This document shows, one piece after another, positions 26,595 to 61,304 of a stretch of DNA of 64,000 nt. The DNA is from Nitrospirota bacterium (GTDB lineage: Bacteria > Nitrospirota > UBA9217), in assembly GCA_963751455.1 (NCBI GenBank), contig CAVVUN010000015.1, positions 1,344,001-1,408,000 of the forward strand, in the 5' to 3' direction. The notes under the pieces were generated by a model. The model did not search any database, was not told the DNA's origin, and worked only from the letters and a program-made list of their open reading frames with translations. Within the stretch, counting starts at the first letter, position 1. Every line of letters begins with the position of its first letter. The position numbers were made by a program, and so were the translations under genes.

Positions 26595-26789
26595 GTTACG
26601 ACTTTGCATCCGTGTACTAATCAACTACAACTATAATCCCAGCATCTCTATTTCCGAAGGGCTTTCTCCGCGTTGTATACCCGATTCCTGCCTCATCGCT
26701 GATATCATATCCTGGGTTAAGTTTATCCACTTTAGTTCGCTTGCCCTCAAATTATAAATTTAATACCCCGAAAATACCCCTTTTTTTGA

Positions 26790-26825
26790 ATTGACGAGAA
26801 ATCTTAGTCATGCTACAAAAGTATC
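26790..26825 (+). promoter_or_regulatory. Sigma70-like promoter conserved upstream of carrier genes
   Basis: attgacga...atgctacaaaagtat recurs at ~44374-44408. Confidence 0.55.
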
Positions 26826-27029
26826 ATTCATAAAGTAAACCTTCCTCAAGTTACCCGCTGGTCCAGCGAATCCCAGCATGCAGATCTGGCCAGTTCGAAG
26901 CTACGATTGCGAATTAGCCAATACAGATCCTTCTTCGCATTTTTGCGTGGAATGTACTTTTTTAACGGCGTGAAACGCATTAAGTCTCAATCGACCAATT
27001 GTAATAAAACTGAATACATGGAGTGTGCC

Positions 27030-30000
27030 ATGCGTGTAAAGACCTTCTTTCGTTTTTTAAGAATCGTCTCGGCAGTGGTATTATTTTTCTTCGTTTGGAC
27101 TTTCAGCGAAATCTGGCAAGCAGTGGCTTGGGCGGCTGCGCCGGCGCAGGTTAAGACGACGCAGGCCCGGAGCGAAAAGCCGAAACCGGCATCCGCTGCG
27201 GAGCAATTCGAGGCAGCGCTTGAGGGGCTGATGGAACGAATCGGCAAAACCGGCGAAAAGGCCGCGCGCAATGAAGACATCACCGAAGATCTCGGACAGC
27301 TCAAAACCGTTAAAGCCGCTATCGAAGCGCTCGATGGGGAATTGAGAAAAGAATTTTCAAACACGGAAAAGCGCCTCATTGATTCAAAGCTCCCAAAAGA
27401 AATACTCGCCAGACATGCTGCATTCGTGAAAAATTGTGAGAACAATCTTTCCCAGCTTAAAACCGAAATAGATGACCTCGACAAGGCAAAGACTAAGGCA
27501 GACCGCAAGTCGAAGATCGAAAAGGTTCGTCTGCACCTCGAAAAAACCAAAGCCCCGTCGCGTCATCAAAAACTCGACCCCGAAAATTTACCGTTCAGGG
27601 CAAGGAAGGCCGCAAAAGCCCGCGAACCGCGACTTAAAAAGGAAGACTTCAAAGAGTTCGGGCCGCAGAAGCGCACGAATTTGGCCGCAGATGAACACAG
27701 ATTGACACAGATTGCTTCGGGGATGCAAGATGCAGGATTTAGGATGCATGATAAAAATATTTCATATAGATCCGTTCAAAAGCCTCTCCTCCTCGCCTAT
27801 AACGCAGAGACCGCCACCGACGCTCCTCTGTCTTTTTATCAAAAACCCGAAACTCGAAACGCTGAACTCGAACCGTTTTCTACTATCGCTTTCTCCGAAC
27901 CAATTTTGAATATTGAATCCGGCACTTTGAATTTGGCGCAAGCCGTAGGCGCGCCAACTGCAGACGATCTCGCGCAAACGCCTGATGTTCAGTTTACTTC
28001 TGAAATCCGTGCGAAGGCTCAGGAACTCGGATACAATCCGGTCAAAATCTACGAGTATGTCAGGAACAACATTGAATATGCCCCTCTATACGGGTCCATC
28101 CAGGGAGCAGACCAGTGCCTTCAGTCGAAGATTTGCAATGATTTCGATACGGCGTCCATTCTAATCGCCCTTCTTCGAGTATCGGGCATATCAGCGAGAT
28201 ATGTATATGGAACAGTCGATATCCCTATGGAACAGGCAATGAACTGGGTTGGCGGCGTGACCGACCCCAAGATGGTCGGAACGATCCTCGCTACAAATGG
28301 GGTTCCCGTCACGCTCCTTAAGACCAGCTCTGGTGTCTACAAATACGTGAGGATGGAGCGTGTCCTCGTCAGCGCATTCATCGACTATATCCCAAGCCGC
28401 GGGGCGGTCCACAAACAGGGTGATACATGGATTCCGCTCGATCCGAGCTTCAAACAATACGACTTCAAACATGGTATGGATTTGTATACCGCAATGGGGA
28501 TTAATGGCGAGCAATATCTTCAGAGTTACATTACGGACACATCGTCTCTTACAATCCCAACAGAATTACAAGCATCATTTCCAGCATATACCATAAGCCC
28601 GTATCAATATTACAGCAAAAGGCTGTTCAATTACCTCGACACTAATTTTCCTTCCGCAACTTATCAGGACGTATTTGGTGCAGACACGATTGAGGCTTCA
28701 AGAGCAATAATCAAGAAAGAATATCCGTATCTTATGGGTACTCTGCCCTACAGCGTAGTTACGCAAGGCGCATCATTCGCATTCATCCCGGACAGTCTTA
28801 GACACAAAGTAAATTTCCTGATTGGAGACACGACCTTATCTGACGCAAGCTTAACCTACACGGCAAGCTTGCCCGAAATCGCCGGTAAAAGAATAACCCT
28901 CTCATCTGTTCCTGCGACGGCATCAGATGAGTCACTCGTGAACCAGTATGGTACAATGCTGAACGTTCCGCCATATCTTCTCTCTGTGAAAATGGCGTTG
29001 AAAATCAATGGGATTGCCGTGGCGACTGGTAGCCCTGCTGGTCTCGGCAAGGTGCAGACATTTAACATGAGTTTCACCATCCCCAACATAGGAACGGAAA
29101 TCGTTATAAACACGGTAACTGCGGGAGATTACTCAGCAATTCCAATTATCTCCTGCAACGTTCCCTTTACTTTGGTAGGGGATAAAATGGAAACTCTTAT
29201 CAACAACATCGGAAGCTCTGATCTCGATGATCTGTTAGGCCAGATGCTTTACAACGTCGGAGTATCGTACTTCCATCATCTTAATTTTGAGGAAGAGCTG
29301 TATGCCAAGAACTTCAAGATGATCATAACCAAGGGTCTCTCAGAGGCTATCGTAACCTCTCACGCTGAAACCGATTCGCTTTGGGGTGTGCCATATAAAA
29401 TCTCAGAAGGCGGAATAGGGATCGATGTAGGCAAGAATGAATACTTCCCCTTCCCTTACGACGGCAGCAGCAATCGGGCACGCGATTTCATGATAGTATC
29501 AGGCCTCGGCAGCTCAGCATGGGAAGATAGAGTGCTTCAAGCTTTCTATGATGTACCGTCCGTCTCGGCAGCACGACTTCTCAGATATGCCAGTCAGCAA
29601 GGCGTGCTGATTTACACAATTGATGGAACTAACATTAGCGATATTCTGCCGCAACTTCTGGTTTCTTCACAAGTACTAGACGATATTAAAAATGCTGTGA
29701 ATGCCAGCAAAAAAGTAATCATCTCGAAAACCGGTGTCCAATATGAGGGGATGGACAGTATAGGCTATATTGTGCTCGATCCGGGAACAGGAGCGGCTGG
29801 TTATATGATTAGCGGTGGGCTCGCAGGGGGCATGAGCAGCCAGCCAGATGATATGTCGGTAAGAGATATTACTCAATATTTGCGTGATGGATCAGCACTC
29901 AGAACAATTTATGGAAGATCGATGGTTGTTATGTATGCTTTAGCACAATTAGGCACTCCGTATCGTACCGGGTTTGAAGACCCCGGTCCCATGGGTGGGG

Positions 30001-30380
30001 CAGATCCAGACAAGGGGTTTGATTGCTCGGGGCTCATATATTATTTATTCACGACTGTTTACAATAAACATATTTTTGGACCTGAGAGATTATGGACAGT
30101 AGACCGTCAACATAGATATTTATTGGAAAAGAAAATGACTCATCTTTATGAGGAAAAACTCGACGGCGATATACTGTGGAGCGATAACTACGGCCATACT
30201 GGAATATATTATGGCATTCATGCACTTCTGCCAGGGGAAACTCTTGTTACAGACTCTGTAATTCACGCAAATCGCGGCAAATGGTTTAGCGCGGTTATTA
30301 TTACATCTACAAATAACGCAGCCTTTACGGGTGCGCCAAGTGGCAGTCGTATGCCTGATATAGGAAGACCAGTTCCTTAA
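27030..30380 (+). CDS. Transglutaminase-like carrier 1 with C-terminal NlpC/P60-like domain (candidate polymorphic toxin)
   Basis: Signal peptide; ALLRVSGISARYVYG, WIPLDPS; junction GAAGYMISGGLAGG; C-terminal LGTPY, GFDCSGL, GDIL, GHTGIY, VIHA. Confidence 0.8.
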   Translation: MRVKTFFRFLRIVSAVVLFFFVWTFSEIWQAVAWAAAPAQVKTTQARSEKPKPASAAEQFEAALEGLMERIGKTGEKAARNEDITEDLGQLKTVKAAIEALDGELRKEFSNTEKRLIDSKLPKEILARHAAFVKNCENNLSQLKTEIDDLDKAKTKADRKSKIEKVRLHLEKTKAPSRHQKLDPENLPFRARKAAKAREPRLKKEDFKEFGPQKRTNLAADEHRLTQIASGMQDAGFRMHDKNISYRSVQKPLLLAYNAETATDAPLSFYQKPETRNAELEPFSTIAFSEPILNIESGTLNLAQAVGAPTADDLAQTPDVQFTSEIRAKAQELGYNPVKIYEYVRNNIEYAPLYGSIQGADQCLQSKICNDFDTASILIALLRVSGISARYVYGTVDIPMEQAMNWVGGVTDPKMVGTILATNGVPVTLLKTSSGVYKYVRMERVLVSAFIDYIPSRGAVHKQGDTWIPLDPSFKQYDFKHGMDLYTAMGINGEQYLQSYITDTSSLTIPTELQASFPAYTISPYQYYSKRLFNYLDTNFPSATYQDVFGADTIEASRAIIKKEYPYLMGTLPYSVVTQGASFAFIPDSLRHKVNFLIGDTTLSDASLTYTASLPEIAGKRITLSSVPATASDESLVNQYGTMLNVPPYLLSVKMALKINGIAVATGSPAGLGKVQTFNMSFTIPNIGTEIVINTVTAGDYSAIPIISCNVPFTLVGDKMETLINNIGSSDLDDLLGQMLYNVGVSYFHHLNFEEELYAKNFKMIITKGLSEAIVTSHAETDSLWGVPYKISEGGIGIDVGKNEYFPFPYDGSSNRARDFMIVSGLGSSAWEDRVLQAFYDVPSVSAARLLRYASQQGVLIYTIDGTNISDILPQLLVSSQVLDDIKNAVNASKKVIISKTGVQYEGMDSIGYIVLDPGTGAAGYMISGGLAGGMSSQPDDMSVRDITQYLRDGSALRTIYGRSMVVMYALAQLGTPYRTGFEDPGPMGGADPDKGFDCSGLIYYLFTTVYNKHIFGPERLWTVDRQHRYLLEKKMTHLYEEKLDGDILWSDNYGHTGIYYGIHALLPGETLVTDSVIHANRGKWFSAVIITSTNNAAFTGAPSGSRMPDIGRPVP

Positions 30381-30397
30381 TCAAAGGAGAAATTATT

Positions 30398-31384
30398 ATG
30401 GTTATCAGAATTATTATTAGCGTGCTGCTAATGTTGGCATGCGCAACATCTTCAAGGGCAGAAGAGTTTTCCGTCAGAAAGGTCATACTATCTCGATTTA
30501 AAGTAAAAAACGACGTGATAGTAGATTTGCCAAAGATGTCACCCTATTGGCCTGAGGTAAATAGAGGTATTCTCGCCATAGATAATCAGGGGCGGATATA
30601 TATTTTGAATTTATGGAATAATGAAATTCTCGTTTTTAACGATCAGGGGAAGTTGCGAGATAAAATTAGTTTGCCAATGAGATTGTATAGATTTGAACAT
30701 ATGAATGGAGAAATAGAAGTCTCTGGTGATGGTAAACGATTATTTGTGGAAGGATATGACCAATCCAATAAAATGAATCAAATTCTTTTAGATCAAAATG
30801 GCAAAATTGTTAGGCAATTTATTAGTGATAATGAAATCATTTGGAACTTTCCTGATGCTCGCCTTTGTAATAAGCCTTATTATCTCTTCAAAAAAGGTGG
30901 TCTTCTTTATGATGAGAATTTTTATAAATTAAGCGGTCAGTATCAAGGATTTGTCGACTCAGAAGGAAAATATACATTTGATTTCGAGAAACGGCTGCTG
31001 ATTAAGCTTCGACAGGATGGTGGGAGAATATGGGAGAAACAGTTTAACACTAATATTGAAATCGTCGGTCTTGATGCAAACAGTTTCCTTTATATTGTTA
31101 CACGTCTAAAAAATGACGATCCTGATTATTTATATAAACTCAATTCAAAGGGTAAAATTCTGGCAAAGGTTCCCATTCCTAAACCATTTCCCCTTCTGAC
31201 ACAAGAAGAAAAGGAAGACTTTTATGCGCTGATATCTGAGGAGCCGTTTGCCTCTTTCAAGCTTACTTGCAATGGCGACGTATATTTGATATTTCGTCTT
31301 AACAAATTGCCTGAGCCTGCATTCAAACGTTGGCTAAAGGGCGGAGAATATTTTATTTATAAATTCGAGACACTTGGTAAATAG
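30398..31384 (+). CDS. Secreted beta-propeller-like protein (candidate immunity 1)
   Basis: Signal peptide; LAIDNQGRIYI NHL-like repeat; AT-rich; 17 nt after carrier 1. Confidence 0.65.
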   Translation: MVIRIIISVLLMLACATSSRAEEFSVRKVILSRFKVKNDVIVDLPKMSPYWPEVNRGILAIDNQGRIYILNLWNNEILVFNDQGKLRDKISLPMRLYRFEHMNGEIEVSGDGKRLFVEGYDQSNKMNQILLDQNGKIVRQFISDNEIIWNFPDARLCNKPYYLFKKGGLLYDENFYKLSGQYQGFVDSEGKYTFDFEKRLLIKLRQDGGRIWEKQFNTNIEIVGLDANSFLYIVTRLKNDDPDYLYKLNSKGKILAKVPIPKPFPLLTQEEKEDFYALISEEPFASFKLTCNGDVYLIFRLNKLPEPAFKRWLKGGEYFIYKFETLGK

Positions 31385-31642: not shown

Positions 31643-34393
31643 ATGCGGAAAAGATCACTAAGCTGTATCGTTTTCATCATCTTCTCTATCGTTAGTTCTT
31701 CAGTCTTCGCCCAATCTCCGCAAATATCGACCGGCCTTACCTGGCTCTACTCTGCTCAAACATCGAGCGGTAACTGGCCGGAAGTGGCGACCACCGATTA
31801 TTACTCCACTACCACAGCGCTTGATGCGGTTTATGCACTCGATTCCTCAAGCCCGGCATACTCTGCGGGCTTCCAGTGGATGACCGGCCAGATCTTTTCT
31901 CCGGTGGATTATCTCTCACGCCGGGTCATTGCACTCACGCGTTCAGGGCAGGATATATCAACCGAATTATCCGGACTTATTCTTTATCACAATTCCGATG
32001 GCGGTTTTGGAGGTGCTGACGGTTACCCCAACAGTTACACCCTCGACACCGCCCTCGCCCTGCAAGCCCTCAAGGCCGCCAATTATTCCGATACGACCGT
32101 TATCGGTCAGTCATTGAACTATCTCACTAAAAATCAAAACTCAGACGGTGGGTGGGGATTCAGGTCCGCGACCGACGCTAGCCCTGCTGATGATAGCAAT
32201 GCGTACGTAACTGCAATCGTTCTCCGTACGCTTGCATTATACGATTCAACATTCAAAATGACAGATTCAATATTAAGGGCATCGGAGTACCTCATTGCCA
32301 AACAAAATGCTGACGGAGGTTTTGGATCTAGTCCTTCCAACATCTATGAAACTGCTCTCTCGATCTTGTCATTAATCGAAAGCGGAAAAGGAAGTAGTTC
32401 GATCATTCAGAACGGGATTCAATATTTGACATCGACGCAAGCATCCGACGGTAGCTGGGGTCAGGACCCATATTATACTGCTCTTGCGCTTCAAGCGCTT
32501 GCTGCTGCAAGGCCGAATCTTACTATTTCCTCAATTTCACTTTCGAATCCGATGCCGAAAGAGAATGTAGAAACAACCATTTCTGCTACGATAAAGAACG
32601 CCGGGTATGATGACGCCTCTAACATTATCGTTCGATTCTTTCTTGGCGACCCGGCAAACGGCGGCATTCAAGTCGGGTCTGATCAAATTATTCCATCTCT
32701 TACCCCGAACTCCTCAACTCCTGTCTCCGTAACTGCTTCATTCACCGGTATTGGCGGCAAGACGATATTCGTTGTCGTTGATCCGGACGGTGTTATCTCT
32801 GAAACATCTGAATCAGACAACAAATCTTCCGCCCGTGTTTGGATTGCAACCGGACCTGATCTTGCTGTTTATTCCGAAGACCTGAAACCATCCACTTATG
32901 TTCCTGTATCAGGAACCGCGTTTACTCTCGGATATAAAGTCCGAAACCTTGGTGAAAGTGCGACAGGAGCATTCACTGTCAGTCTCTACGAAGGCGATCC
33001 TTCGCAATCCGGAGTTCTTTTGCAGACCGTCAATATCTCGGGTCTTGCAGGAACGGAAGTACGCTCAGGATCAATAGGTGTTACCCTTACCGGGAACGGT
33101 TCTCACACGCTTTACCTGACAGCTGACCCCGGAACCCTGATCCCTGAATTATCTGAGACGAACAACACCGGCTCGGTCACTGTCCAGGTAGGAGGCACGC
33201 AGCAGTTTGCGGACCTTATGGTAGGGATGATACAGATTACCCCAGCCCGGCCGACTACTGGTGAGATGGTGCAGATAACCGCGCCGATCCGGAACAAAGG
33301 GTCTGAAGCGGCGTCGTTCTTTACTGTAGAGATATTCGACGGCCTCCCAGATGCCGGAGGCACGCTGATTAACGCGCAAACGATTTCACTTGCGTCTGGC
33401 GCTGAACAGATCATTACCGCGAATTGGGCAATCGCGTCAGGTATTCACGAGCTCTATCTGATCGTGGACCGCTCCAACCAGATCAGCGAGACAAACGAAA
33501 CGAACAATCAAACAACGCTGCGCGTCATGCCTGACATGGTCGACATTTCGATCTCCGCAACAGATTTGACATTTACTCCTGAGCATCCGGTGAACGGGGA
33601 TATTGTGCTTTTGTCAGCCGAACTGCATAATACCGGGATCAAGGACACTGGTGCATTCAACTTTGCACTCTATGACGGAGATCCGGCAGCAGGAGGCACA
33701 CTTTTACAGACCTTCTCCATCGCGAACCTTGCCGGCGACGCAAGCACGACCCTAACCTACAATTTTACCGCTGTTCCCTGGACCTACCGTTTCTATGCAA
33801 TAGCTGATACTGAAAACATTGTCACCGAACTCTACGAGGCAAATAACCAGGCAATCAGCTCGTTAAAGATTAAAGCGCCCGGCGAAATCCTTGGTCCTGA
33901 TAACGTCCCAACAGCGCCGGACCTTACAAGCATGCCCTTCAGCAGCCCGACTTTGACCATCTCCGGTAACGTGAAAACAGCATTCGAAAACACCGGCGAC
34001 ACAAAGATAGCCGATTCCTCCGGCATTATCATCTTCGAGGACAAAAACAACGACGGCAGGTACACGGCAGGAGTGGATACGCTCTTAGGAACAGGCACAT
34101 ATACAATCGCAAAATTCAATGACGATCCCATGTCCGAGTTCGTTCTGCTTATTACCCAGGTTTATTACCATGCACTATATATGAAAGGAAGCGTTTATTT
34201 GATCGAACACGACGGAAAAATAAAATGGGGACCGGTGTATCTGAACGATCTTGCGCCCTATGCCCTGTCCGCGTCATACGACAGTGAGACCATCAAGACC
34301 GGCCTCGATGAAGCCGGTGAGCCGATCATTAACATCCGCATAAACGACAAAGATGTAATTCTGGACAGAGACGGATATCTGAAAAATAAATAG
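31643..34393 (+). CDS. Secreted prenyltransferase-like repeat / CARDB protein (short paralog 1)
   Basis: QNSDGGWG repeats; four CARDB-type repeats ending E..E.NN/DN. Confidence 0.85.
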   Translation: MRKRSLSCIVFIIFSIVSSSVFAQSPQISTGLTWLYSAQTSSGNWPEVATTDYYSTTTALDAVYALDSSSPAYSAGFQWMTGQIFSPVDYLSRRVIALTRSGQDISTELSGLILYHNSDGGFGGADGYPNSYTLDTALALQALKAANYSDTTVIGQSLNYLTKNQNSDGGWGFRSATDASPADDSNAYVTAIVLRTLALYDSTFKMTDSILRASEYLIAKQNADGGFGSSPSNIYETALSILSLIESGKGSSSIIQNGIQYLTSTQASDGSWGQDPYYTALALQALAAARPNLTISSISLSNPMPKENVETTISATIKNAGYDDASNIIVRFFLGDPANGGIQVGSDQIIPSLTPNSSTPVSVTASFTGIGGKTIFVVVDPDGVISETSESDNKSSARVWIATGPDLAVYSEDLKPSTYVPVSGTAFTLGYKVRNLGESATGAFTVSLYEGDPSQSGVLLQTVNISGLAGTEVRSGSIGVTLTGNGSHTLYLTADPGTLIPELSETNNTGSVTVQVGGTQQFADLMVGMIQITPARPTTGEMVQITAPIRNKGSEAASFFTVEIFDGLPDAGGTLINAQTISLASGAEQIITANWAIASGIHELYLIVDRSNQISETNETNNQTTLRVMPDMVDISISATDLTFTPEHPVNGDIVLLSAELHNTGIKDTGAFNFALYDGDPAAGGTLLQTFSIANLAGDASTTLTYNFTAVPWTYRFYAIADTENIVTELYEANNQAISSLKIKAPGEILGPDNVPTAPDLTSMPFSSPTLTISGNVKTAFENTGDTKIADSSGIIIFEDKNNDGRYTAGVDTLLGTGTYTIAKFNDDPMSEFVLLITQVYYHALYMKGSVYLIEHDGKIKWGPVYLNDLAPYALSASYDSETIKTGLDEAGEPIINIRINDKDVILDRDGYLKNK

Positions 34394-34436
34394 AGCCAGA
34401 ATATATGGCATAAGAATAAATTGAGGGAAGAGGGTT

Positions 34437-34889: not shown

Positions 34890-34928
34890 AAAACTATCAA
34901 AAGAACCGGCGAGAACAAAATGGAAGGA

Positions 34929-49044: not shown

Positions 49045-49063
49045 ATTAATGTCTTGGAGCTTA

Positions 49064-50171: not shown

Positions 50172-50230
50172 TGAAAGCGAAACGTCAAAATATTATATGA
50201 AGCTAACAGGAGCATCAAGATGCAAGAAAT

Positions 50231-50490: not shown

Positions 50491-50620
50491 TTTTGAGAAA
50501 TATATTTTTTTTTAAATCCGAACGTCCGTATTCGTTTATAGTCATAGATATTGCAGTTAGGGATGGACTTTAATGGGCAAGCCCCTTAGGGCAATAAATT
50601 ATTATTAATCAGGAGGGACA

Positions 50621-51097
50621 ATGCGATTCAAGTCATTTTTTGTGACATCGTCGGTTGTAGCTTTTGTAATTGCTGCTCTATTATCTTTCCAGGCTAGCGG
50701 TGCTCCCAAATCGCGTATTGAAATACGTTGGAAGAAGGACATATCCCTTTCAGGGACTTATTTTTTATCCTCCCTAGTTAATCGCAAGGCTAGAACCTTC
50801 GGTTGGACCGAAGCAATCTGGGAGTCCCCCCCTGTTTTTGCAGGATTCGAGATTGTACGCCGAGGACCGAAATACTTTTTTGCTGGCGGAAATCTCCATG
50901 AAGAAGTTGTGTGGTTCCAAATTGTTGGAAATACACTGGAGGGAAATCCATGTGATCCACGCGGTAATTTCTGTATCTCTCGGATTCAGATAATCGATAA
51001 AGACACTTTTACCATTTGTATAAACGATAAAGAAGAAAATACATATTACAGAGTCGACGGAATGACTCAAATATATCCTAAAGAAGAGAAACCCTAA
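50621..51097 (+). CDS. Secreted hypothetical protein
   Basis: RBS aggaggg, signal peptide, Cys pair. Confidence 0.7.
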   Translation: MRFKSFFVTSSVVAFVIAALLSFQASGAPKSRIEIRWKKDISLSGTYFLSSLVNRKARTFGWTEAIWESPPVFAGFEIVRRGPKYFFAGGNLHEEVVWFQIVGNTLEGNPCDPRGNFCISRIQIIDKDTFTICINDKEENTYYRVDGMTQIYPKEEKP

Positions 51098-51464: not shown

Positions 51465-54400
51465 ATGAGAAGAGCGTTAATTATTGCTGTTATCCTGGCG
51501 TGTTTATTACAGGCATTTCCTTGCAGGGCTCATAGCGCATCAATATCGAGCGGCGCCGAATGGTTAATGTCTACTCAAAACGCTGATGGCAGTTGGGGCT
51601 CGGAAGATTTTACTCTGATCAATACATCATTAACGCTAGATGCTCTCACAGCAACCGGGAATACCGGAACAAATTTTACCGAGGGACTAAACTGGCTGAC
51701 CCTACAAACTGATATACCGACGACAGATGAATTAGCTCGGAAAATAATCACTGCGGCTAAGGCTGTCATCGATGTCAGTGAATTGATAGATAATCTCGTT
51801 GGTTACAGAAATTCTGACGGGGGATGGGGCGCAAAGATCGGCTCATTCAGTGATCCTGAAACTACCGCCCTCGCCCTCAAAGCCCTTCATGCCGCAAATT
51901 ATTCCGATACGACAGTCATCGGGCAGTCTTTGAACTACCTCACCAAAAATCAAAATTCGGACGGCGGGTGGGGATTCAGGTCAGCGAGTGAAGGACTGCT
52001 GGCGGACGAAAGCAATGCATATGTAACCGCGTTAGTGCTTCGGGCTTTGTCTTCATACAATTCCGTATTCATTAATCAGGAAGCAATTAATAACGCTTCG
52101 GCATATCTTCTCATGAAACAGAACACTGATGACGGCTTCGGTAGCTCTCCCTCAACAATTTATGAAACCGCGTTGTCGGTTATGTCTTTGATCGAAAGTG
52201 GAAAGAGCAGTTCAGAAACGATTATCAACGGAATTAATTACCTTACATCCATGCAATCACCAAATGGCTCATGGAATGATGATCCATATTCTACCGCTCT
52301 TGCTCTTCAGGCGTTGGCTGCAGCGAGGCCGAATCTCACTGTCTCCTCGATTTCGCTTTCGAATCCAATGCCGCAGGAGAATGTAGAAACAGCTATTACT
52401 GCTACGATAAAAAATGCTGGATATGAAGATGCTTCTAACGTTGCCGTTCGTTTCTATCTTGGCGATCCTTCGATAAACTCAGGACAGGTCCCTTCGACAG
52501 GTGGTATTCAAGTCGGTGCTGATCAAATTATTCCGTCTCTTACTCCGAACTCCTCAACTCCCGTCTCTATAACTGCTTCATTCACCGGCACCGGCGGCAA
52601 GACTATCTTCGTTGTCGTTGATCCTGATAATACAATATCCGAAACATCCGAAACCGACAATAAATCCTCCACCCGCGTTTGGGTGGCAACGTGTCCTGAT
52701 TTGGCGGTTTATTCTGAGGACCTGAAACCTTCAACCTATGTCCCCGTTTCGGGAACTGCGTTTACCATGGAATATAAAATTCGTAATCTCGGTGAGAGTG
52801 CTACCGGCGCATTTACAGTCAGCCTCTACGACGGTGATCCTTCACAGGCTGGCGTCCTTTTGCAGAGTGTCAATATCTCCGGCCTTATGGGGACGGAGGT
52901 AAGAACGGGAACGGTGGGCGTTACATTAACCGGGAATGGTTCGCATACCCTTTATCTGGTCGCTGATAAAGATAGCGCGGTCACCGAATTATCCGAGACG
53001 AACAACACCGGCTCGGTTACTGTTCAGGTTGGAGGCACACAGAAGTTTGCGGATCTTGTGGCAGGAATGATACAGATTACGCCGGCACGGCCGAACGTGG
53101 ATGAGACGGTGCAGATAACAGTGCCGGTCAGAAACAAAGGATCAGAAGCGGCGTCGTTCTTTACGGTAGAGATATTCGACGGCCTCCCGGATGCCGGAGG
53201 CACGCTGATTCACTCACAAACGATTTCTCTTGCGTCTGGCGCTGAACAGATCATTTCAGCGAATTGGACAATCGCGTCAGGTATTCACGAGCTCTATCTG
53301 ATCGTGGACCGCTCCAACCAGATCAGCGAGACAAACGAAACGAACAATCAGGCGTCTGTCAAAATCATGCCCGATATGGTGGATATCTCTCTCTCCGCTA
53401 CTGATCTGACATTTATACCTGAGCACCCGGTTAATGGCGATACGGTTCTCCTTTCAGTTAAGGTGAACAACGCCGGGATCAAGGAGACCGGAGCATTCAA
53501 CTTTGCACTCTATGATGGAGATCCGGCGGCAGGAGGCACACTTTTGCAGACCTTCTCCATCGCGAACATTGCCGGTGACGCAAGCACGACTGTAACCTAC
53601 AATTTCACCGCTGTTCCCTGGACCTATCGGTTCTATGCTATTGCCGACACGGAGAACACCGTCACCGAACTCTACGAGGCAAATAATCTCGCCATCCGTT
53701 CACTAAAGATCAAAGCCCCCGGAGAAATTCTCGGTCCTGATCTTGTGCCCACCAAAATCGATCTTTTGTCCATGACCACCGACACCCAGACCCTGTCAAC
53801 AGGCGACAGCGCAAAAATCACGTTCCAGAACAAGGGCGATGACAAGATCGCCAGTTCCTTCAGCGTCTTGGTATTCGACGATATCGACATGAACGGGGCC
53901 TACACGCCCGGTATGGACAACATTCTCAGTACCGGCACCAGTACAATCCCAATCTGGCCTGAAGGCGTGGGCATGGTAAGCATGACGCTTTCCGGGTCAG
54001 TGAAGTTCCTGAATACGCCGCTTTATGCCATGATAGACGCGGACGACACGATCCACGAACAGGACGAGACGAACAATATCCTTTCCTCGTGCAAGGATTG
54101 CCAAGTTGTGCCAACGAACCCATTGCAGCCGACGGTGAAGTGGAAGTGGTGGGGCCCGTACGATGAGTATTTCTATACGCCACCCTCAATTATGAACCTG
54201 AGGGACACGAACAGCGATAGTAAAATTGATCAAAACGACACTCCGGATATTATCATAAACGCCGGCGCGCGGACTGGCAATAGCATTTATGGAACCATTC
54301 GGGCGTTTAAAGGCAATATGGGCGAAAATTACATGAACCTCAAGGATGCAAACAACCGGCCAAGCGCTTATTCTTATACTGCAGCCGGTGATATCGACAG

Positions 54401-57400
54401 CGACGGAAAACCAGATATCCTTAGCGCCCGCAGTAGTGCAAGCGGGTACAGTATCGTTGCATATAATAACGACGGGACTGTTAAGTGGAACAATATCGCC
54501 AACGTCAACGCCTGGAATGCCTCCCATCTCCCTGGGACTGTCTGGAACTATTTAGATATTCGTCCTGATGGGATTCTCGCTCTTGCGGACCTCGATGGCA
54601 ACGGGACAAAGCAAATCGTCATGGGCCCGAACATTATTAATGCGGATGGTTCCATCCGGTGCGCGAGGGACCATTTTGTGTACAGTGGTGAAGGTATGGC
54701 ATATAATTACGGGGGGTTCTATGCGGTCAGCATCGCTGATCTTGATCTGGATGGCAGGCAGGAAATCATCGGGGGAAACGCCGCATATGACGGCAATTGC
54801 AACCTTAAGTGGTGGAACAGTGTCTTGCCGGACGGCGCAACCGCAATAGCGAATTTTAATGATGATGTATATCCGGAGATTGTTTTGGTGACCAATTATC
54901 AGCATCGCTCCAGTGTTTACCTCCTCGATCGCAATGGAAGCGTTAAATGGGGACCGGTGTACATCTATCGGCTGAACGGCGAAGCAACTCCAACCGGATA
55001 TAATATAAGCCAGCCGGTTGTGTCGGATTTCGACGGCGACGGCACTACGGATATAGGAGTCATGTACGACGGCAAGATTTTTATTCTGAATAGAAGCGGT
55101 CAACTAGTGCATCGGTTCCCGATCCCGGGTAAATACAATGAAGTTGGTTGGGGAAATTACCCGACTGCGCCCACGGTTTTTGACCTCGACGGCGACGGAA
55201 GTCCAGAGATAATGTTCAACTCAGCCGGTTACTTCCGCATCATGAACGGCAAAAACGGCGTCACATTATTTCAAGAGGCTTTCGGATATGCTGACGCCAA
55301 TATTCAAAATACTGTGGTTGCTGACGTGGACGGCGATGGCCATGTTGAAGTAGTCGTTGTCGGTCCTGACGTCAATAACGGCATTATGACGGCCATACGC
55401 GTGTATGGTTCATCCGACCACAGTCAGCCCTGGGTCAATGGCCGCCGCATCTGGAACCAGCCCTCCTACCACGTCACGAACGTGAACGACGACGGCTCTA
55501 TCCCGCAGTATGAAACCCCGAGCTGGCTTATGAACAACACCTACCGTACGCAGGCGGCAATCGGCCCGAATCCGAATCCGTACCTGACGCCCAACCTGAC
55601 GGTTTCTTACTTCCGGCAACAGCAGGAAAACGCCGGCCTGAACGTCACGGTCCGCGTCGGGAACGGCGGGGCCACAGAAGCTTCGGCAGGCGCGGGCGTC
55701 TCGTTCCACAACGGAACCTCGCAGGGCGGAACCCTTCTTGGTACGATATACACAACCAAAACCCTGCAGCCCGGAGAGTACGAGGACGTTTCGTTCACCG
55801 TGGGCAGCGCTTATGCAGGCAGCGCGGCAATAACCGTGGTCGTGGACGAGGCGGCCCTGGTCTCCGAATGCCGTGAGGACGACAATACCGTCACTCTCTC
55901 GTTGAGCGCGATATCCGGCATGCCCGACCTCACCATAGGCGCTGAAGATATTACGCTTTCATCAGGTCCGTATTATGAAGGCGGTTTCGTATCGATAACG
56001 GCAAACGTCAGGAATGCAGGCTATTATCCTGCTGCAAATACGCAAATCCGGCTTTATGACGGAAATCCCGAACCCGACGGGATGCAGATAGGAACACAGA
56101 CGATTTCCTGGATCGATGCAGGCGGATCAGCAACAATCACGTTTACTTTCGACACCCTCGGCAAATCCGGAACCCACGTGCTGTACGCGGTCGCGGACCC
56201 TGAAAATGCAATCATTGAGACAAACGAACAAAACAACAGCGCAGGCGCAACACTTGATGTAGAGCAGCCGATTTTGCCGAACCTGACGGTCACGTCGAAT
56301 GACATTGCTCTATCGTCGTCATCGCTCAGGGAAGGGGAGCAGCTTACAGTAAACGCAACCGTCTTGAACCGGGGAACATCGGTTGGCGCAATTCCAGTCA
56401 GACTCTCGCTTACATCTGCCGGATCAGGAACAGAATCGATCTCTCAAACGATCTACCCGGTCCTCGGCCTCGGTCAGTCTGTAACGGTGCAGGCAACCTT
56501 TGAGACAGTCGGATTGTCCGGCACACAGACGGTCCTCATAGAAGTCGACCCTGACAATGCCATCGCGGAAGGCATAGAAACCGACAACACGGCCTCCGCA
56601 TTGGTTTCAATCCAGAGCGCGGGAATTGCATCGAGCCTGAGCATCGATAAAACTCAGTATGGCTCGCATGCAGATTCGAACATAATCGTGTCTATTCACA
56701 ACAATAATTCTTCCTCCTGGTCCGGCAGCGGCTCGATATTCATAGAAGATACAGCCGGAAATCGAATCGCCTCAGCAGCAACATTCACCGTGACCGAACT
56801 CGTACCCGCAGGTCCGGCAGGCAGGGCGTATCGGATACCCGCATCACTAACAGCAGACCGGACCATGAAAGACGCACTCGCGCAGACAAACATAGATTTT
56901 GCTTCAGCTCTTTCAATCCTGGGCATACCGGATAAGTCTGTTGATCAAAACTCGCTTCGCGTCCTGGAACTGGACGGCCAAGGGAACATCGTCAATGAAA
57001 AACAGGCAAAGGCCGAATTCCAGGCGGATGGTTCGGCAAATGTTACCTGGCTTGTCGACGGGATCACCCAGGCAGACTCAACCAGAAGCTTCGCAGTCTA
57101 CTTCGATACGAGCGACCACGGTCCCAAGACTCCGTCACAAAACACAAATCTTATCATGAACGGGCAACTTATCGCTTTCACGGACGATTCAGGCAAAATC
57201 TATACCATTGAAAGCAATGGCGATGGAACATTCACGACAGCCAACCTTATCGATGACATATCGACTTCGAACGACAATATCCGGGGCGTCGTGCTCGATG
57301 ACTTCAATAACGACGCTTTCACGGACGTGATCACCGGCCGAGGCACAACCGGAGAACTCTATTATTACCAGAACAAGGCAGACGGCACGAACACATTCCT

Positions 57401-60400
57401 TGCAAGAGTCAAGATCGGCGCAATTACCGCCTCCAGTTGGATCATGGATATGGCAACCGCCGATTTCAACAACGACGGCTTTGAGGACTTTGTCGTGAGC
57501 GGCAACAATAAAAACCTCTATCTGTTCCAGGGAAATGGAAACGGCGCCTTTACCCAGACCACACTGGCCTCTCCGGCGAGCGCAGTGGCATTGAGAGGCA
57601 AGACGGCAGCCGATGTTGACCGTGACGGAAAGGTCGATCTGTTCATCGGAAACTATAGTGACGGCGCACTCTACCTCTACAGAGGCAGCGGGAACGGTGC
57701 TTTTTCATCACCGGTTAAAATCGGCACAAGCGGCGCCGATCCGTACGGCGTTATTGCCCGCGATTTTGACGAGGACGGCAGGATAGATCTGATTGCAAGC
57801 ACCAGCGCCAGTGGAGGCGCCAATCTCTTCAAAGGCATTGGCGACGGCGCCTTCGCCTCTCCGGTTTCCGTGCCGTCCCTTATCACAGGCAGTGCAATCG
57901 GATTCGACGCTGGAGATTTCAACAATGACGGTCATATGGATATAATCGCCGCAAACTGCGGCAGTAAAAACATTGCATTCTACCCGGGCAGGGGAGACGG
58001 GAGTTTCGGTCAGAAAGTACAGCTCGCTTCCACGGCCTACTGCAGTCTCGGCATCAGCGCCTTGCCGGCCCCGCCCGAGATATCCGTTGTGACGGGACAG
58101 GCCGAGCCGGTTCCCTCGCAGACGTATTCCTTTACCTGGAACACGGGCGGAACATACGCAGGCGCCTATCAGGTACATGCAATATTGTCCGAACCCGGCA
58201 AGGCCGTGTCTGAAAACCGCGCTTCTTTCGACATTCTGCCGGATATGAACGCCCAGGCAGGCGTCACCACGGACAAGATTTCGTATAATCCGAACGAGAC
58301 AATAACGCTTTCTTCGACAGTTACGAGCCTGAGCGGGAATTATGCTTTTGAAAACCTGGCAGCCCGGGTAGAGATCAGTTCAAGCGGTTCAAACAGTTTA
58401 AACGGTCTGGTCTTCGTCGAAACGAAGACCATATCCACCCTCATGCCCGGGGCCGCGTACACGTTCAAGAGTTACTGGAACGTAGGGACGAATGCGCCGG
58501 GGACATATCCGGTAACTCTCGAGATAAAAGATGCGACAGGCACGGTCATTGCCGCGGGCACACAGAACGTTGTGATCGCGAATACGCTCAAACCTTCAGC
58601 CATGCTCAAGGGCCAGATTGCCGTAGACAAGCAGAGCCTGCTGTCCGGCGAGACAGTGACGATCTCGTATGGCGTAACGAACACGGGAAATACCGATCTC
58701 GAGAACATTGCGCTCTCGGTCCTGACCGTCCATGCAGTAAACGAGTCGATATACGACACGATCACTGATCAAGCTAGCGTTGCCATGGGTGCAACGTCCA
58801 GCAATTCCGCTTCAATCAACACCACAAACTACAGCGCCAGGGATTACCTGGTTATTCTGCGGGCAAATATCGCCGGGGTGGAAGAGACCCTTGCCGGGAC
58901 CTACTTCAGGGTCGAAGGGGCGCCGTCCGCGCCGTCGCTCGCCGGGCCCGGACAGGCTGCGGATGTCCTGACCTTCTTTCCTGAGCTTTCTGTGAATAAT
59001 GCGTCAGATCCGAACGACGACAAGCTCTTGTATGAGTTTGAGGTGTACAGCGACCCCGGCTTAGCGAATCTCATCACCAGTTCCTCCGGCACGGTCTCCG
59101 AACAGGCCGGAATCACAAAATGGATCGTAGCCGTGGCCCTTTCCGAAAACCAGACCTATTACTGGCGTACACGAGCATATGACGGGAAGTTGTACGGGCC
59201 ATGGATGTCCATCGACTCTGCTCAGGACAGGCCGGCATCTTTCAGGGTCAACACCGTGAATGATCCGCCGACTGCGCCTATTCCAACGAGCCCTGCAGAT
59301 GGCACAGATGTGTCCGTTCTTACTCCAATTCTGACTGTCACCAATGCGGCTGATCCGGACAGCGCCAGCCTCACGTATAATTTCGATGTGGCACAGGATC
59401 CTGATTTTGCCGGCATCGTGATATCTGCAAAAGGCGTATTGAGCGGCCAAGGCAATACTTCGTGGCAGCCGACCCTGAGCCTTGAGGAGAATGTTTGGTA
59501 TTACTGGAGAGCGCAGGCTGATGACTGGCTGGATGAAGGACCGTGGTCAGTCACTTCCCGGTTCTTCGTGAACACGTCTAATGACGCGCCTACTGCGCCT
59601 TCGATAACCATGCCGGCCGATAATTCTACGGTGTCTGCCCTTACTGCCGATATTATTGTCGCAAACAGCACTGACCCTGATTCTGCGGTTATTAACTACT
59701 TTATCGAGCTTGATACAGCCATGACCTTCGATTCCGGTAATGTGATCAGGTCGGGCGCTGTTATGGCAGGACAGGCCTCTTCGACAGGCTCAGGGCAGGA
59801 TACGACAATGTGGCACGTGGATGGGCTCCGGGACAATACCCGATACTATCTCCGAGCGAAGGCAAGCGACGGCGCTGCCGAAAGCGCCTGGTCGTCAGTG
59901 GTATCTTTCTTTGCTAATACTGCCAACGACGCCCCGACAGCGCCGCTGCCCGCAAATCCTTCCAACAATGCCGGCGTGAATGTTTTCATGCCGACATTGT
60001 CCGTGCACAACTCGGCGGACCTTGACGGAGACGCTCTCACTTACGAATTCGAGCTCTATAGTGATGCGGCTATGTTGAACCCGGTCCGGAATGCCTCAGG
60101 CCTTGCTGAAACAGCTCAAATTACCTCGTGGACTGTGCCGGTATCGCTTATTGAAAACCAGATTTATTACTGGCGCGCCCGGTCCTTTGACGGAATAGCT
60201 GTAAGCGCCTGGACTACCCTTTCCCAATTCACCGTAAATACTGCCAATGACTCACCGGGCGCGCCGGGCCTCTCATCGCCTGCTGAAGGGAGCAGCCTTT
60301 CAACAACGACGCCCACGCTCTCGATCACGAATGCAGTGGATCCGGACAGCGATAATCTTACTTATGATTTCGAGATCTACTCGGGCGGCGTGCTTGTAAA

Positions 60401-60899
60401 CGCGGCGTCTGGAGTCGGAAGCCAGGAGTCAGGAGTAACATCGTGGATTGTATTGACGACGCTGACGGACAATACGGCGTACGCATGGCGGGCGCGCGCC
60501 TTTGACGGCGACCAATATGGTTCATGGATGGGCATGGCCACATTCTCGATCCATATTCCGAAAACGAGCATCAATGCAACAATTGATTTTGATCCTGATA
60601 CTTTGAATAAAAAGAGCAAAGGCACCTGGGTCGTCGTGTATATCGAACTTCCCGTCGGGTACAAGCCGGCTGATGTCGACATCGCCTCGATTCGACTGGA
60701 AGGGACGGTACCTGCTGAGCTCTGGCCGTATGCAAGCGGAGATCATGATAAGGACGGCATCCCGGAGCTTATGGTCAAGTTCAAGCGGAGCGACGTGATA
60801 AGCGTGATCGGAAACGGAGATAATATCCCGGTACAGGTAAAAGGCAAGGTCGGAACCATGACATTTGAAGGAGCGGATGTTATCAGGGTGATACCGTAA
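51465..60899 (+). CDS. Giant (~3144 aa) secreted protein: prenyltransferase-like repeats, CARDB, two FG-GAP/VCBS regions, five Fn3/Ig-like repeats
   Basis: MRRALII signal peptide (same start as 39872 paralog); QNxDGxWG; DxDxDG.PEI and DFNNDG repeats; PxAP...YYWRARA repeats. Confidence 0.9.
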   Translation: MRRALIIAVILACLLQAFPCRAHSASISSGAEWLMSTQNADGSWGSEDFTLINTSLTLDALTATGNTGTNFTEGLNWLTLQTDIPTTDELARKIITAAKAVIDVSELIDNLVGYRNSDGGWGAKIGSFSDPETTALALKALHAANYSDTTVIGQSLNYLTKNQNSDGGWGFRSASEGLLADESNAYVTALVLRALSSYNSVFINQEAINNASAYLLMKQNTDDGFGSSPSTIYETALSVMSLIESGKSSSETIINGINYLTSMQSPNGSWNDDPYSTALALQALAAARPNLTVSSISLSNPMPQENVETAITATIKNAGYEDASNVAVRFYLGDPSINSGQVPSTGGIQVGADQIIPSLTPNSSTPVSITASFTGTGGKTIFVVVDPDNTISETSETDNKSSTRVWVATCPDLAVYSEDLKPSTYVPVSGTAFTMEYKIRNLGESATGAFTVSLYDGDPSQAGVLLQSVNISGLMGTEVRTGTVGVTLTGNGSHTLYLVADKDSAVTELSETNNTGSVTVQVGGTQKFADLVAGMIQITPARPNVDETVQITVPVRNKGSEAASFFTVEIFDGLPDAGGTLIHSQTISLASGAEQIISANWTIASGIHELYLIVDRSNQISETNETNNQASVKIMPDMVDISLSATDLTFIPEHPVNGDTVLLSVKVNNAGIKETGAFNFALYDGDPAAGGTLLQTFSIANIAGDASTTVTYNFTAVPWTYRFYAIADTENTVTELYEANNLAIRSLKIKAPGEILGPDLVPTKIDLLSMTTDTQTLSTGDSAKITFQNKGDDKIASSFSVLVFDDIDMNGAYTPGMDNILSTGTSTIPIWPEGVGMVSMTLSGSVKFLNTPLYAMIDADDTIHEQDETNNILSSCKDCQVVPTNPLQPTVKWKWWGPYDEYFYTPPSIMNLRDTNSDSKIDQNDTPDIIINAGARTGNSIYGTIRAFKGNMGENYMNLKDANNRPSAYSYTAAGDIDSDGKPDILSARSSASGYSIVAYNNDGTVKWNNIANVNAWNASHLPGTVWNYLDIRPDGILALADLDGNGTKQIVMGPNIINADGSIRCARDHFVYSGEGMAYNYGGFYAVSIADLDLDGRQEIIGGNAAYDGNCNLKWWNSVLPDGATAIANFNDDVYPEIVLVTNYQHRSSVYLLDRNGSVKWGPVYIYRLNGEATPTGYNISQPVVSDFDGDGTTDIGVMYDGKIFILNRSGQLVHRFPIPGKYNEVGWGNYPTAPTVFDLDGDGSPEIMFNSAGYFRIMNGKNGVTLFQEAFGYADANIQNTVVADVDGDGHVEVVVVGPDVNNGIMTAIRVYGSSDHSQPWVNGRRIWNQPSYHVTNVNDDGSIPQYETPSWLMNNTYRTQAAIGPNPNPYLTPNLTVSYFRQQQENAGLNVTVRVGNGGATEASAGAGVSFHNGTSQGGTLLGTIYTTKTLQPGEYEDVSFTVGSAYAGSAAITVVVDEAALVSECREDDNTVTLSLSAISGMPDLTIGAEDITLSSGPYYEGGFVSITANVRNAGYYPAANTQIRLYDGNPEPDGMQIGTQTISWIDAGGSATITFTFDTLGKSGTHVLYAVADPENAIIETNEQNNSAGATLDVEQPILPNLTVTSNDIALSSSSLREGEQLTVNATVLNRGTSVGAIPVRLSLTSAGSGTESISQTIYPVLGLGQSVTVQATFETVGLSGTQTVLIEVDPDNAIAEGIETDNTASALVSIQSAGIASSLSIDKTQYGSHADSNIIVSIHNNNSSSWSGSGSIFIEDTAGNRIASAATFTVTELVPAGPAGRAYRIPASLTADRTMKDALAQTNIDFASALSILGIPDKSVDQNSLRVLELDGQGNIVNEKQAKAEFQADGSANVTWLVDGITQADSTRSFAVYFDTSDHGPKTPSQNTNLIMNGQLIAFTDDSGKIYTIESNGDGTFTTANLIDDISTSNDNIRGVVLDDFNNDAFTDVITGRGTTGELYYYQNKADGTNTFLARVKIGAITASSWIMDMATADFNNDGFEDFVVSGNNKNLYLFQGNGNGAFTQTTLASPASAVALRGKTAADVDRDGKVDLFIGNYSDGALYLYRGSGNGAFSSPVKIGTSGADPYGVIARDFDEDGRIDLIASTSASGGANLFKGIGDGAFASPVSVPSLITGSAIGFDAGDFNNDGHMDIIAANCGSKNIAFYPGRGDGSFGQKVQLASTAYCSLGISALPAPPEISVVTGQAEPVPSQTYSFTWNTGGTYAGAYQVHAILSEPGKAVSENRASFDILPDMNAQAGVTTDKISYNPNETITLSSTVTSLSGNYAFENLAARVEISSSGSNSLNGLVFVETKTISTLMPGAAYTFKSYWNVGTNAPGTYPVTLEIKDATGTVIAAGTQNVVIANTLKPSAMLKGQIAVDKQSLLSGETVTISYGVTNTGNTDLENIALSVLTVHAVNESIYDTITDQASVAMGATSSNSASINTTNYSARDYLVILRANIAGVEETLAGTYFRVEGAPSAPSLAGPGQAADVLTFFPELSVNNASDPNDDKLLYEFEVYSDPGLANLITSSSGTVSEQAGITKWIVAVALSENQTYYWRTRAYDGKLYGPWMSIDSAQDRPASFRVNTVNDPPTAPIPTSPADGTDVSVLTPILTVTNAADPDSASLTYNFDVAQDPDFAGIVISAKGVLSGQGNTSWQPTLSLEENVWYYWRAQADDWLDEGPWSVTSRFFVNTSNDAPTAPSITMPADNSTVSALTADIIVANSTDPDSAVINYFIELDTAMTFDSGNVIRSGAVMAGQASSTGSGQDTTMWHVDGLRDNTRYYLRAKASDGAAESAWSSVVSFFANTANDAPTAPLPANPSNNAGVNVFMPTLSVHNSADLDGDALTYEFELYSDAAMLNPVRNASGLAETAQITSWTVPVSLIENQIYYWRARSFDGIAVSAWTTLSQFTVNTANDSPGAPGLSSPAEGSSLSTTTPTLSITNAVDPDSDNLTYDFEIYSGGVLVNAASGVGSQESGVTSWIVLTTLTDNTAYAWRARAFDGDQYGSWMGMATFSIHIPKTSINATIDFDPDTLNKKSKGTWVVVYIELPVGYKPADVDIASIRLEGTVPAELWPYASGDHDKDGIPELMVKFKRSDVISVIGNGDNIPVQVKGKVGTMTFEGADVIRVIP

Positions 60900-60998
60900 G
60901 GCGGGAAAAATTGTAAATTGGAAATTGAAAATTGTAAAATGCAAAGTGTACCCTGCTCTTAGGAAGACGAGACATGTTTGGTGGTACAAGGAGGCCGT

Positions 60999-61304
60999 AT
61001 GAAAAAAGCTTATACCGGATGGATCGTTCCGCTCGTTTTATGCCTTGCGCTCTTCGCCTGCACCGATGACAAGAACCCGGCGCAGCAGTACGGCAACACG
61101 ATGGTTGAGTCTCTCAAAACCGCGAAGAAGGTTGAAAAGAAGGTGAATGTGCTGACAGTGCAGAAATCAATACAGGAATACTACGCAGCCAACGGCCGCT
61201 ATCCTGCTGATCTGAACGAGGTCGCGGCGTTCAACGGTATGACCTTAGAGGGCGGCAATTATGATTACAATCCTGCGACGGGAACGTTGACAGAGAAGCC
61301 GTGA
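60999..61304 (+). CDS. Small lipoprotein with pilin/GspG-like C-terminal segment
   Basis: LFAC lipobox; IQEYYAANGRYPADLNEV; YDYNPATGTL. Confidence 0.65.
   Translation: MKKAYTGWIVPLVLCLALFACTDDKNPAQQYGNTMVESLKTAKKVEKKVNVLTVQKSIQEYYAANGRYPADLNEVAAFNGMTLEGGNYDYNPATGTLTEKP

Follow-up and report, generated by a model that had tools for sequence, protein, structure and literature searches.

The window analyzed here is a 64,000-nucleotide stretch of a Nitrospirota bacterium genome (GCA_963751455.1, contig CAVVUN010000015.1, positions 1,344,001 to 1,408,000), and our main finding is that it contains three plus-strand cassettes with the organization of a polymorphic toxin system. Specifically, the open reading frame (ORF) map and its translations show that each cassette consists of a carrier gene, followed by an AT-rich gene and then by a gene coding for a prenyltransferase-type toroid with CARDB domains. 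The features of polymorphic toxins found are a conserved body with exchanged tips, recognized toxin domains, an adjacent gene that co-varies with the tip, and orphan cassettes with a homology arm. We are highly confident that this is a polymorphic toxin system, with toxicity and immunity predicted from sequence. We also consider it probable that the system is a secreted, antibacterial, two-partner one, in which a carrier with a Cys-less transglutaminase domain would bear a swappable tip, a matching immunity protein would accompany it and a giant protein would display the carrier. An earlier sequence-only reading of the window had proposed a Sec-exported antibacterial system with the CARDB protein as display or delivery partner. 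The toxin-domain tips, the co-varying next gene and the co-occurrence of giant and carrier in 32 of 34 genomes speak for this proposal; antibacterial action and display are its predicted parts.

Conserved carriers and exchanged tips

Carriers A, B and C are 38-40% identical to each other across ~930 residues, from the N-terminus through a DPxxG..Y.(I/L)SGGLxG motif, which bears out the earlier claim that the genes at 27030, 35741 and 44549 align up to an SGGLxGG-type junction. Past this junction each carrier ends in a tip of its own. The sequence-only reading had missed an orphan module at 49104-50171 and the frameshifted immunity-like gene behind it.

27030..30380 (+): carrier A, 1116 amino acids (aa), with a signal-peptide-like N-terminus, helical bundle, Cys-less transglutaminase domain, middle/pre-tip region and NlpC/P60 tip (Cys999, His1056)
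35741..38920 (+): carrier B, 1059 aa, with a tip of 155 aa that has three hydrophobic helices and is predicted to act on membranes
44549..48022 (+): carrier C, 1157 aa, with an NlpC/P60 tip (Cys995, His1073)
29778-29828 (A), 38402-38452 (B) and 47291-47341 (C): DPxxG..Y.(I/L)SGGLxG junction, placed by alignment
49104..50171 (+): orphan module, 355 aa, consisting of the last ~113 carrier aa and an alternative NlpC/P60 tip (Cys186, His282)

The C-termini are AT-richer than the bodies that carry them, as had been claimed. The GC content at third codon positions (GC3) falls from 0.51-0.53 to 0.31-0.37 past the junction in window carriers A, B and C. Among 72 full carriers of relatives with tips of at least 80 aa, GC3 is lower past the junction in 71 (median change -0.16) and drops by more than 0.1 in 52. 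As a control set, 68 long, unrelated ORFs at these loci gave a median change of -0.012, with a drop of more than 0.1 in seven. The GC3 of the next gene also lies below that of its own carrier in 65 of 66 cases among relatives.

The further claim that the three C-termini are unrelated holds for carrier B, which has a hydrophobic helical bundle of 155 aa with three hydrophobic helices, and fails for carriers A and C, which like the orphan have NlpC/P60 tips (Pfam) with the catalytic Cys and His kept. The Pfam score is above the cut-off for tip C and for the orphan (24.4 vs 23) and just under it for tip A (22.7 vs 23). In an AlphaFold2 model, tip C resembles NlpC/P60 autolysin/endopeptidase domains (best Z 13.9, root-mean-square deviation (rmsd) 2.5 Å, 115 aligned). 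The genes behind tip B and the tip of locus L161 are 38% identical, whereas the two tips themselves are only marginally similar (27% over 49 aa, E 0.001).

Across relatives the C-termini are far from invariant. The tips of at least 60 aa, numbering 102 (three from the window and 99 from 100 homologues among the matches listed, limited to 636-2025 aa), fall into 43 clusters, and 39 of them are NlpC/P60. We also mapped 71 genome loci (best 80 of 500 confirmed stretches) and 79 metagenome loci (best 80 of 508), which after removal of identical tips gave 147 tips in 71 clusters, and a further 143 representatives gave 136 tips in 96 clusters, with 81 of these 136 being short and having at least two hydrophobic helices. 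Relatives show the pattern that the sequence-only reading had claimed, with highly variable tips, a variable, co-varying next gene and a linked toroid.

Closely related carriers were found to bear unrelated tips. For example, two carriers of L165 are 98% identical across the last 300 residues before the junction and have non-homologous tips, and one genome (L035/L036) has five carrier pairs at 92-96% identity with unrelated tips. Overall, tip homology is missing in 410 of the 506 carrier pairs that have at least 60% pre-junction identity. Orphan tip modules with a homology arm recur at L021, L027, L050, L061/L063, L071, L184 and L187, and the orphan of the window is 71% identical to carrier C at the nucleotide level over 499 bp.

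Three sets of chosen proteins (33, 23 and 19) were scanned with Pfam and contained a range of tip domains. The first set contained M15, AHH, NucA/NucB and a weak Tox-ART-HYD1; the second contained a PLA2-like domain and a DUF6310 tip with a DUF5953 neighbor; and the third contained M23, SLT, PLA2-like, PT-HINT with AHH, PT-HINT with a weak HNH, and Tox-REase-5. Many of the carriers in these three sets had no match besides the transglutaminase domain. In a hand-picked sample, 13 of 14 tips that act in the cytoplasm (about half of them assigned by eye with no Pfam match) have a hydrophobic helix ahead of the enzyme, as do 4 of 25 that act on the wall; this would fit delivery on the outer side of the inner membrane. 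We also considered whether the DPxxG motif might be cleaved in the manner of Rhs proteins, which is unsupported, as the position is Asp in 83% and Asn in 15% of cases and the Rhs core motif is missing.

With three of the four window tips being NlpC/P60 and the best fold matches (tip C) being autolysins, the cassettes might instead code for housekeeping envelope-remodeling enzymes with neighboring regulators, to which the YARHG proteins behind some tips could belong. This reading has very little probability in our view, as it would have to accommodate a patchy distribution (34 of 301 genomes), nuclease and REase tips, swaps of tips on carriers that are 92-98% identical, orphan modules and tips that are AT-rich.

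The carrier body was analyzed in the AlphaFold2 model of carrier C (pLDDT 81.6, pTM 0.82), which shows an N-terminal hydrophobic segment, a helical bundle, a disordered linker, a transglutaminase fold and the middle/pre-tip region. The N-terminal hydrophobic segment is present in 110 of 133 full-length homologues. In an alignment to 3ISR, the column of the transglutaminase Cys contains Ala, Asp, Ser or Gly and never Cys (0 of 61 sequences), with His kept in 58 and Asp in all 61. An active transglutaminase or autoprotease was therefore rejected, because the catalytic Cys position is lost. The 372-aa middle/pre-tip region models well (pLDDT 90.9). With Foldseek, neither the whole carrier nor this region had a match at E<=0.001, ESM Atlas gave no usable match for the region, and VIA-align found nothing at Z>=8 for it (best Z 7.2, rmsd 3.7 Å, 82 aligned), which is no proof of a new fold.

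The pre-tip profile matches 2,516, 4,237 and 5,643 clusters (50% identity) at E<=1e-30, 1e-10 and 1e-3, respectively, with RHS-bearing relatives included, and these counts indicate a large family. The system is widespread among bacteria from the environment. Single-sequence scans of viral contigs and GTDB genomes confirmed no relative, whereas an alignment-based scan did find relatives. Named ones come from Nitrospirota, delta-proteobacterial lineages, Gallionellaceae, Methylobacter, Undibacterium and one archaeon. Cultured organisms with carrier loci are Geothermobacter hydrogeniphilus, Methylobacter luteus and three Undibacterium, while Geomonas anaerohicana has the RHS form.

Genes behind the tips

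A different AT-rich gene follows the carrier in each cassette (GC 0.36, 0.41 and 0.33), as the sequence-only reading had it, except that at 297-328 aa the products are not small. We regard it as likely that this next gene codes for the matching immunity protein, as predicted from its position and its co-variation with the tip.

30398..31384 (+): putative immunity A, a protein of 328 aa that has a hydrophobic segment at its N-terminus and weak similarity to immunity C
38910..39803 (+): putative immunity B, 297 aa, with two predicted transmembrane (TM) helices, overlapping the stop of carrier B
48088..49044 (+): putative immunity C, with an N-terminal hydrophobic segment and an NHL/beta-propeller
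50231..50515 (+): frameshifted, truncated homologue of a propeller-type immunity gene, directly behind the orphan
50621..51097 (+): ORF of 158 aa, AT-rich, hydrophobic at its N-terminus and with no family match, a possible extra immunity gene by its position

Pairing was analyzed in the 128 of 147 cassettes that have a complete next gene which is neither carrier nor partner. The next gene co-varies with the tip, as 86 pairs of cassettes share both tip cluster and next-gene cluster versus a shuffle mean of 5.5 (maximum 24), and leaving out the largest cluster still gave 25 pairs versus 0.6, with relatedness ignored in both sets of shuffles. The predicted location of the next protein also follows the type of tip. 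Of 28 NlpC/P60 tips, 26 precede a protein with a single hydrophobic segment at its N-terminus, and of 79 short hydrophobic tips, 69 precede one with multiple TM helices, while ART-like tips precede soluble proteins, one of which has HEAT repeats. Those next genes of NlpC/P60 tips that were scanned code for beta-propellers or DUF4424/YARHG proteins, and some have no match. In regards to the window, homologues of the immunity A gene at ~50% identity follow other NlpC/P60 tips, and a 38% homologue of immunity B lies behind another hydrophobic tip (L161). ESM Atlas gave only scores under 0.8 for immunity B.

DUF4424/YARHG proteins occur at the NlpC/P60 cassettes of L014, L020, L040, L065, L071, L119, L128 and L155, mostly directly behind the tip. 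This suggests that YARHG proteins are a second, unrecognized immunity family for wall hydrolases.

The toroid giant as a proposed partner

The third gene of each cassette codes for a protein with a toroid and CARDB domains.

51465..60899 (+): full-length giant partner in an ORF from 51228 with its likely ATG at 51465, 3223 aa, with a toroid that has no DxDD, seven CARDB domains, FG-GAP propeller repeats and Ig/Fn3-like domains
31643..34393 (+): shortened partner 1, 916 aa, toroid and four CARDB domains, with an internal deletion and a truncation relative to the 3223-aa giant
39872..42646 (+): shortened partner 2, 924 aa, toroid and four CARDB domains, with the same internal deletion as partner 1

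The claim that CARDB giants are part of all three cassettes stands in regards to the CARDB gene; only the protein at 51465 has giant size (3223 aa), those at 31643 and 39872 being shortened copies. The toroid resembles squalene-hopene cyclase, with DxDD at the aligned position in 0 of 38 and NCBIfam scores for this assignment far below the cut-offs.

Linkage of the giant to the carrier, as proposed earlier, is evident in the phylum, with its physical display role being predicted. Of 301 genomes, 34 have the carrier, 34 have the toroid and 32 have both, against 3.8 by chance; kin in this sample are not independent, and the positives span 10 families. All four exceptions are fragmented assemblies (90-450 contigs). 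At the mapped loci, a toroid gene is present in 50 of 71 genome loci and in 34 of the 41 with at least 5 kb after the first carrier (either side counted), and it lies downstream in 22 of 27 metagenome cassettes with at least 3 kb. A layout of carrier, next gene, short toroid and a later giant recurs in other genomes, and one archaeal protein (P0082) is a carrier-toroid fusion.

Carrier and toroid also diverge together. The N-terminal half of the toroid is only 33-35% identical among the window paralogues, versus 81-85% for the stalk. Across 39 cassettes, carrier identity and toroid identity have a Spearman correlation of 0.40, a value reached in none of 300 permutations that ignored relatedness. 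In addition, all five relatives that are clearly nearest to one window carrier (margin of at least 0.16) have a toroid closest to that carrier's own, whereas this is not the case for three relatives that lean towards carrier A by margins of 0.08-0.12. Together with the fusion, this co-divergence suggests docking, though linkage alone could give the same pattern.

Several observations weigh against the two-partner toxin reading. The commonest tip class, the hydrophobic bundles, matches no toxin family, and pore formation by these tips is therefore a prediction. Pairing of tip and next gene is not strict, as the three homologues most similar to tip A (55-57%; L155, L065 and L040) precede DUF4424/YARHG genes and not homologues of gene 30398. 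A toroid match is missing from 7 of the 41 long loci. Among 15 cassettes with a CARDB stalk the correlation of carrier with toroid is only 0.21 (17 of 300 permutations as high) and that of carrier with stalk is -0.19, and the co-divergence of carrier and toroid may be simple linkage. Finally, the toroid genes that lie between cassettes include broken ones with fragments of 124-251 aa, so the shortened partners may be duplication remnants.

One alternative is a toxin system in which the giant is only a linked adhesin that brings cells together, or a co-exported passenger, and does not bind the carrier, with the short copies being remnants of tandem duplication. Giants do vary widely in length and domains, with some full-length ones reaching 5000-7000 codons, broken fragments do lie between cassettes, and linkage alone could produce the co-divergence. 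We regard this alternative as unlikely, since the toroid is the domain that giants keep while the rest varies, carrier and toroid co-occur in 32 of 34 genomes both ways, many shortened copies keep the whole toroid (279-540 aa), and a carrier-toroid fusion exists. A different alternative is that the tip and its adjacent protein form a variable ligand-receptor pair for kin recognition or adhesion rather than for killing. In the available part of PMC8416519, this option was raised for the VARTIG modules of Thermococcales, which have hypervariable Ig domains, and it would suit an adhesin-like giant and a largest tip class made of short hydrophobic bundles that match no toxin family (81 of 136). 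However, known toxin or lytic domains that retain their catalytic residues make up many of the tips, in some cases together with PT-HINT, whereas that part of the VARTIG paper reports that no toxins were found, and we consider kin recognition to be quite improbable. We lean towards the giant being the physical display partner of the carrier.

Two further features of the giant and its surroundings were observed. The last ~113 residues of the giant (60560-60899) recur elsewhere in the genome as a separate C-terminal-type domain, at 73% at C15:315700 and more weakly on C2, and possibly constitute a sorting or anchoring domain. Behind the giant, 60978-61304 codes for a predicted lipoprotein of 108 aa, the C-terminal half of which is pseudopilin-like by eye with a weak ComP_DUS match; it has no homologue beside other cassettes.

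Relation to known systems, and proposed export and delivery

The sequence-only reading knew of no characterized system like this one, which remains the case, as far as the literature search given below reaches, for the RHS-free form with a giant and does not hold for the N-terminal module, as this is present with RHS in inactive-transglutaminase toxins. The available part of Zhang et al. (2012; PMC3482391) describes an inactive transglutaminase as a leader among polymorphic toxins of the Sec/type II secretion system (T2SS) route, always with RHS repeats behind it, and the available part of PMC3239186 also mentions a transglutaminase module with RHS, FN3 and Ig. The toxins of PMC3482391 and the window carriers are alike in their signal peptide, broken-triad transglutaminase, variable toxin tips and predicted Sec/T2SS route. 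They differ in that the former carry RHS whereas the window carriers pass straight from junction to tip; the toroid/CARDB partner gene and the hydrophobic-bundle tips paired with membrane proteins are present here and not mentioned in that part of PMC3482391. A search of the full-text literature, the scope of which excluded subscription journals and the main supplement of Zhang et al. (2012), returned no paper that joins transglutaminase carriers to CARDB/prenyltransferase partners. The window carriers have no RHS match in Pfam, and the RHS core motif occurs in none of 243 homologues, from protein searches that favor carriers of window length. In longer relatives (L043, L073), this ~900-aa module is joined to PKD/PASTA/DUF6531/RHS. 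In the window's own genome, a protein at C15:1230155-1236205 combines a papain-like peptidase domain (by eye), a distant dead-transglutaminase module and an RHS-type tail, and its gene is followed by an AT-rich gene for a 159-aa membrane protein. The presence of the module with RHS in L043, L073 and the own genome thus indicates that the module belongs to the inactive-transglutaminase lineage, and the system would operate in the manner of CDI, Rhs or MafB.

Rhs, contact-dependent inhibition (CDI; CdiA/CdiB/CdiI) and MafB systems have a constant body, a variable tip, an adjacent immunity gene, orphan modules and AT-rich tips. The window cassettes share the body, tip, adjacent gene, orphan modules and AT-richness with them; however, the window proteins have no Pfam match to the hallmark domains FHA, RHS, PAAR and LXG, as had been claimed, and likewise none to two-partner secretion (TPS), VENN or MafB domains. 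Their partner is a toroid/Ig giant and not a beta-barrel transporter, and no TPS/FHA or CdiB match was found in the cassette proteins by Pfam or NCBIfam. Type VI secretion systems (T6SS) have NlpC/P60 amidase effectors with periplasmic immunity proteins, such as Tse1/Tsi1. The NlpC/P60 tips belong to the same warhead superfamily and are adjoined by an exported, often propeller-type protein, but here the tip is fused to a signal-peptide-like carrier and the own genome (100% complete, 5.4% contamination) has 0 matches to Hcp and VipB, for which an E. coli control was positive. The VARTIG modules, as far as the available part of PMC8416519 covers them, resemble the window in having a hypervariable array with CARDB/Ig proteins and with membrane proteins that match. 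In VARTIG it is the Ig protein that varies and no toxins were found, whereas the window has a separate carrier with recognizable toxin domains. Finally, in regards to the TcdB/TcaC route of SpvB, integrin-like propeller and RHS, as given in the available part of PMC3482391, the giant has FG-GAP and no SpvB or RHS match.

In regards to expression, the earlier reading had placed a promoter before each of the three cassettes. The layout of carrier, next gene and CARDB gene holds; a shared upstream promoter-like motif is present only in cassettes A and C, and a promoter scan was at chance level (32 sites vs 25.9 +/- 5.7 in shuffles). A short motif ahead of the ribosome-binding site is common to cassettes A, B and C.

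26791..26824 (+): promoter-like motif TTGACG-N17-TACAAA with a preceding TG, in cassette A, a candidate by sequence, with a copy at 44375-44408 in cassette C

Several genes around the cassettes recur elsewhere. Just upstream of cassette A, 24897-26594 codes for an NHL-propeller membrane protein, homologues of which adjoin carriers in L006, L047 and L048. Between cassettes A and B (34437-35330) are an HNH-repeat-like fragment and a reverse-strand helix-turn-helix-like regulator, with a similar small reverse-strand regulator between cassettes in L006/L032. Between cassettes B and C (42643-44130) is a DUF4379 treble-clef zinc-finger protein with seven repeats, which has homologues at all three toxin loci of the own genome (C1, C4) and at two other loci. 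The ORF at 22700-23932 codes for a 410-aa transposase-like protein with no Pfam match, and an apparently identical copy interrupts a giant on C1. The locus on C1 (697000-713700; L003) is a decayed cassette with a 5' carrier fragment, a giant interrupted by an insertion sequence and a 430-aa AT-rich gene, and it lies directly upstream of a cluster of pilM/N/O-like, secretin and pseudopilin genes. The locus on C4 (30172-69000; L001, L002) is divergent and has two long Ig-domain carriers with phosphodiesterase/alkaline-phosphatase-like tips, one of them split in two ORFs, along with tandem paralogous next genes of ~295 aa, exported proteins of 141 and 152 aa, and a toroid giant whose open frame spans 7054 codons.

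The own genome has five secretins. Conserved secretion genes were not found beside the cassettes among 895 neighboring ORFs. The top clusters outside the cassettes were a protein recognized by eye as GAF-like, present at 10 loci, and a transposase-like gene, present at 8; a cluster of T2SS-like assembly proteins covered 3 loci. As secretin systems are present, one of them beside the relic on C1, and yet secretion genes are not conserved neighbors, a Sec and then type II-like route is a guess. In the mechanism that we propose, the carrier would be exported by Sec and would then pass the outer membrane, possibly through one of the five secretin systems. At the cell surface, the cognate carrier would be docked by the N-terminal toroid of the giant, whose CARDB/Ig stalk and FG-GAP propellers would project and adhere to neighboring cells. 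The tip would then reach the envelope of the target, where NlpC/P60, M15, M23 and SLT wall hydrolases would find their substrate and short hydrophobic bundles would become inserted in the inner membrane. Nucleases and ADP-ribosyltransferases would cross this membrane with the help of the hydrophobic helices that they carry and, in some cases, of a HINT protease. Immunity would follow the compartment, with exported propeller or YARHG proteins against wall enzymes, membrane proteins against hydrophobic tips and soluble proteins against cytoplasmic tips. New pairs of tip and immunity gene would arrive through recombination at the pre-tip region.

RHS-free inactive-transglutaminase carriers with a toroid/Ig giant are very likely polymorphic toxins of a known kind in a new form. 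The chances are evenly balanced that they constitute a previously undescribed contact-dependent killing machine that is distinct from CDI, Rhs and T6SS, in which a non-catalytic, prenyltransferase-fold toroid on a giant Ig stalk would dock a cognate carrier made of a dead transglutaminase and a domain that clearly matches no solved fold, and would deliver swappable warheads to the envelopes of neighbors, including a very large unrecognized class of small membrane-inserting toxins, in Nitrospirota, Desulfobacterota/Geobacterales, beta- and gamma-proteobacteria and some archaea, across thousands of clusters. As cultured carrier-bearing organisms exist, this model is testable. It also raises the question of what role the inactive-transglutaminase module has without an RHS shell. 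The YxISGGLxG junction is a sharp marker for mining toxin-immunity pairs, above all those with unrelated hydrophobic tips. If true, the system would represent an additional way of delivering antibacterial toxins in lineages of which few weapons are known, and here in a genome in which no T6SS core was found.

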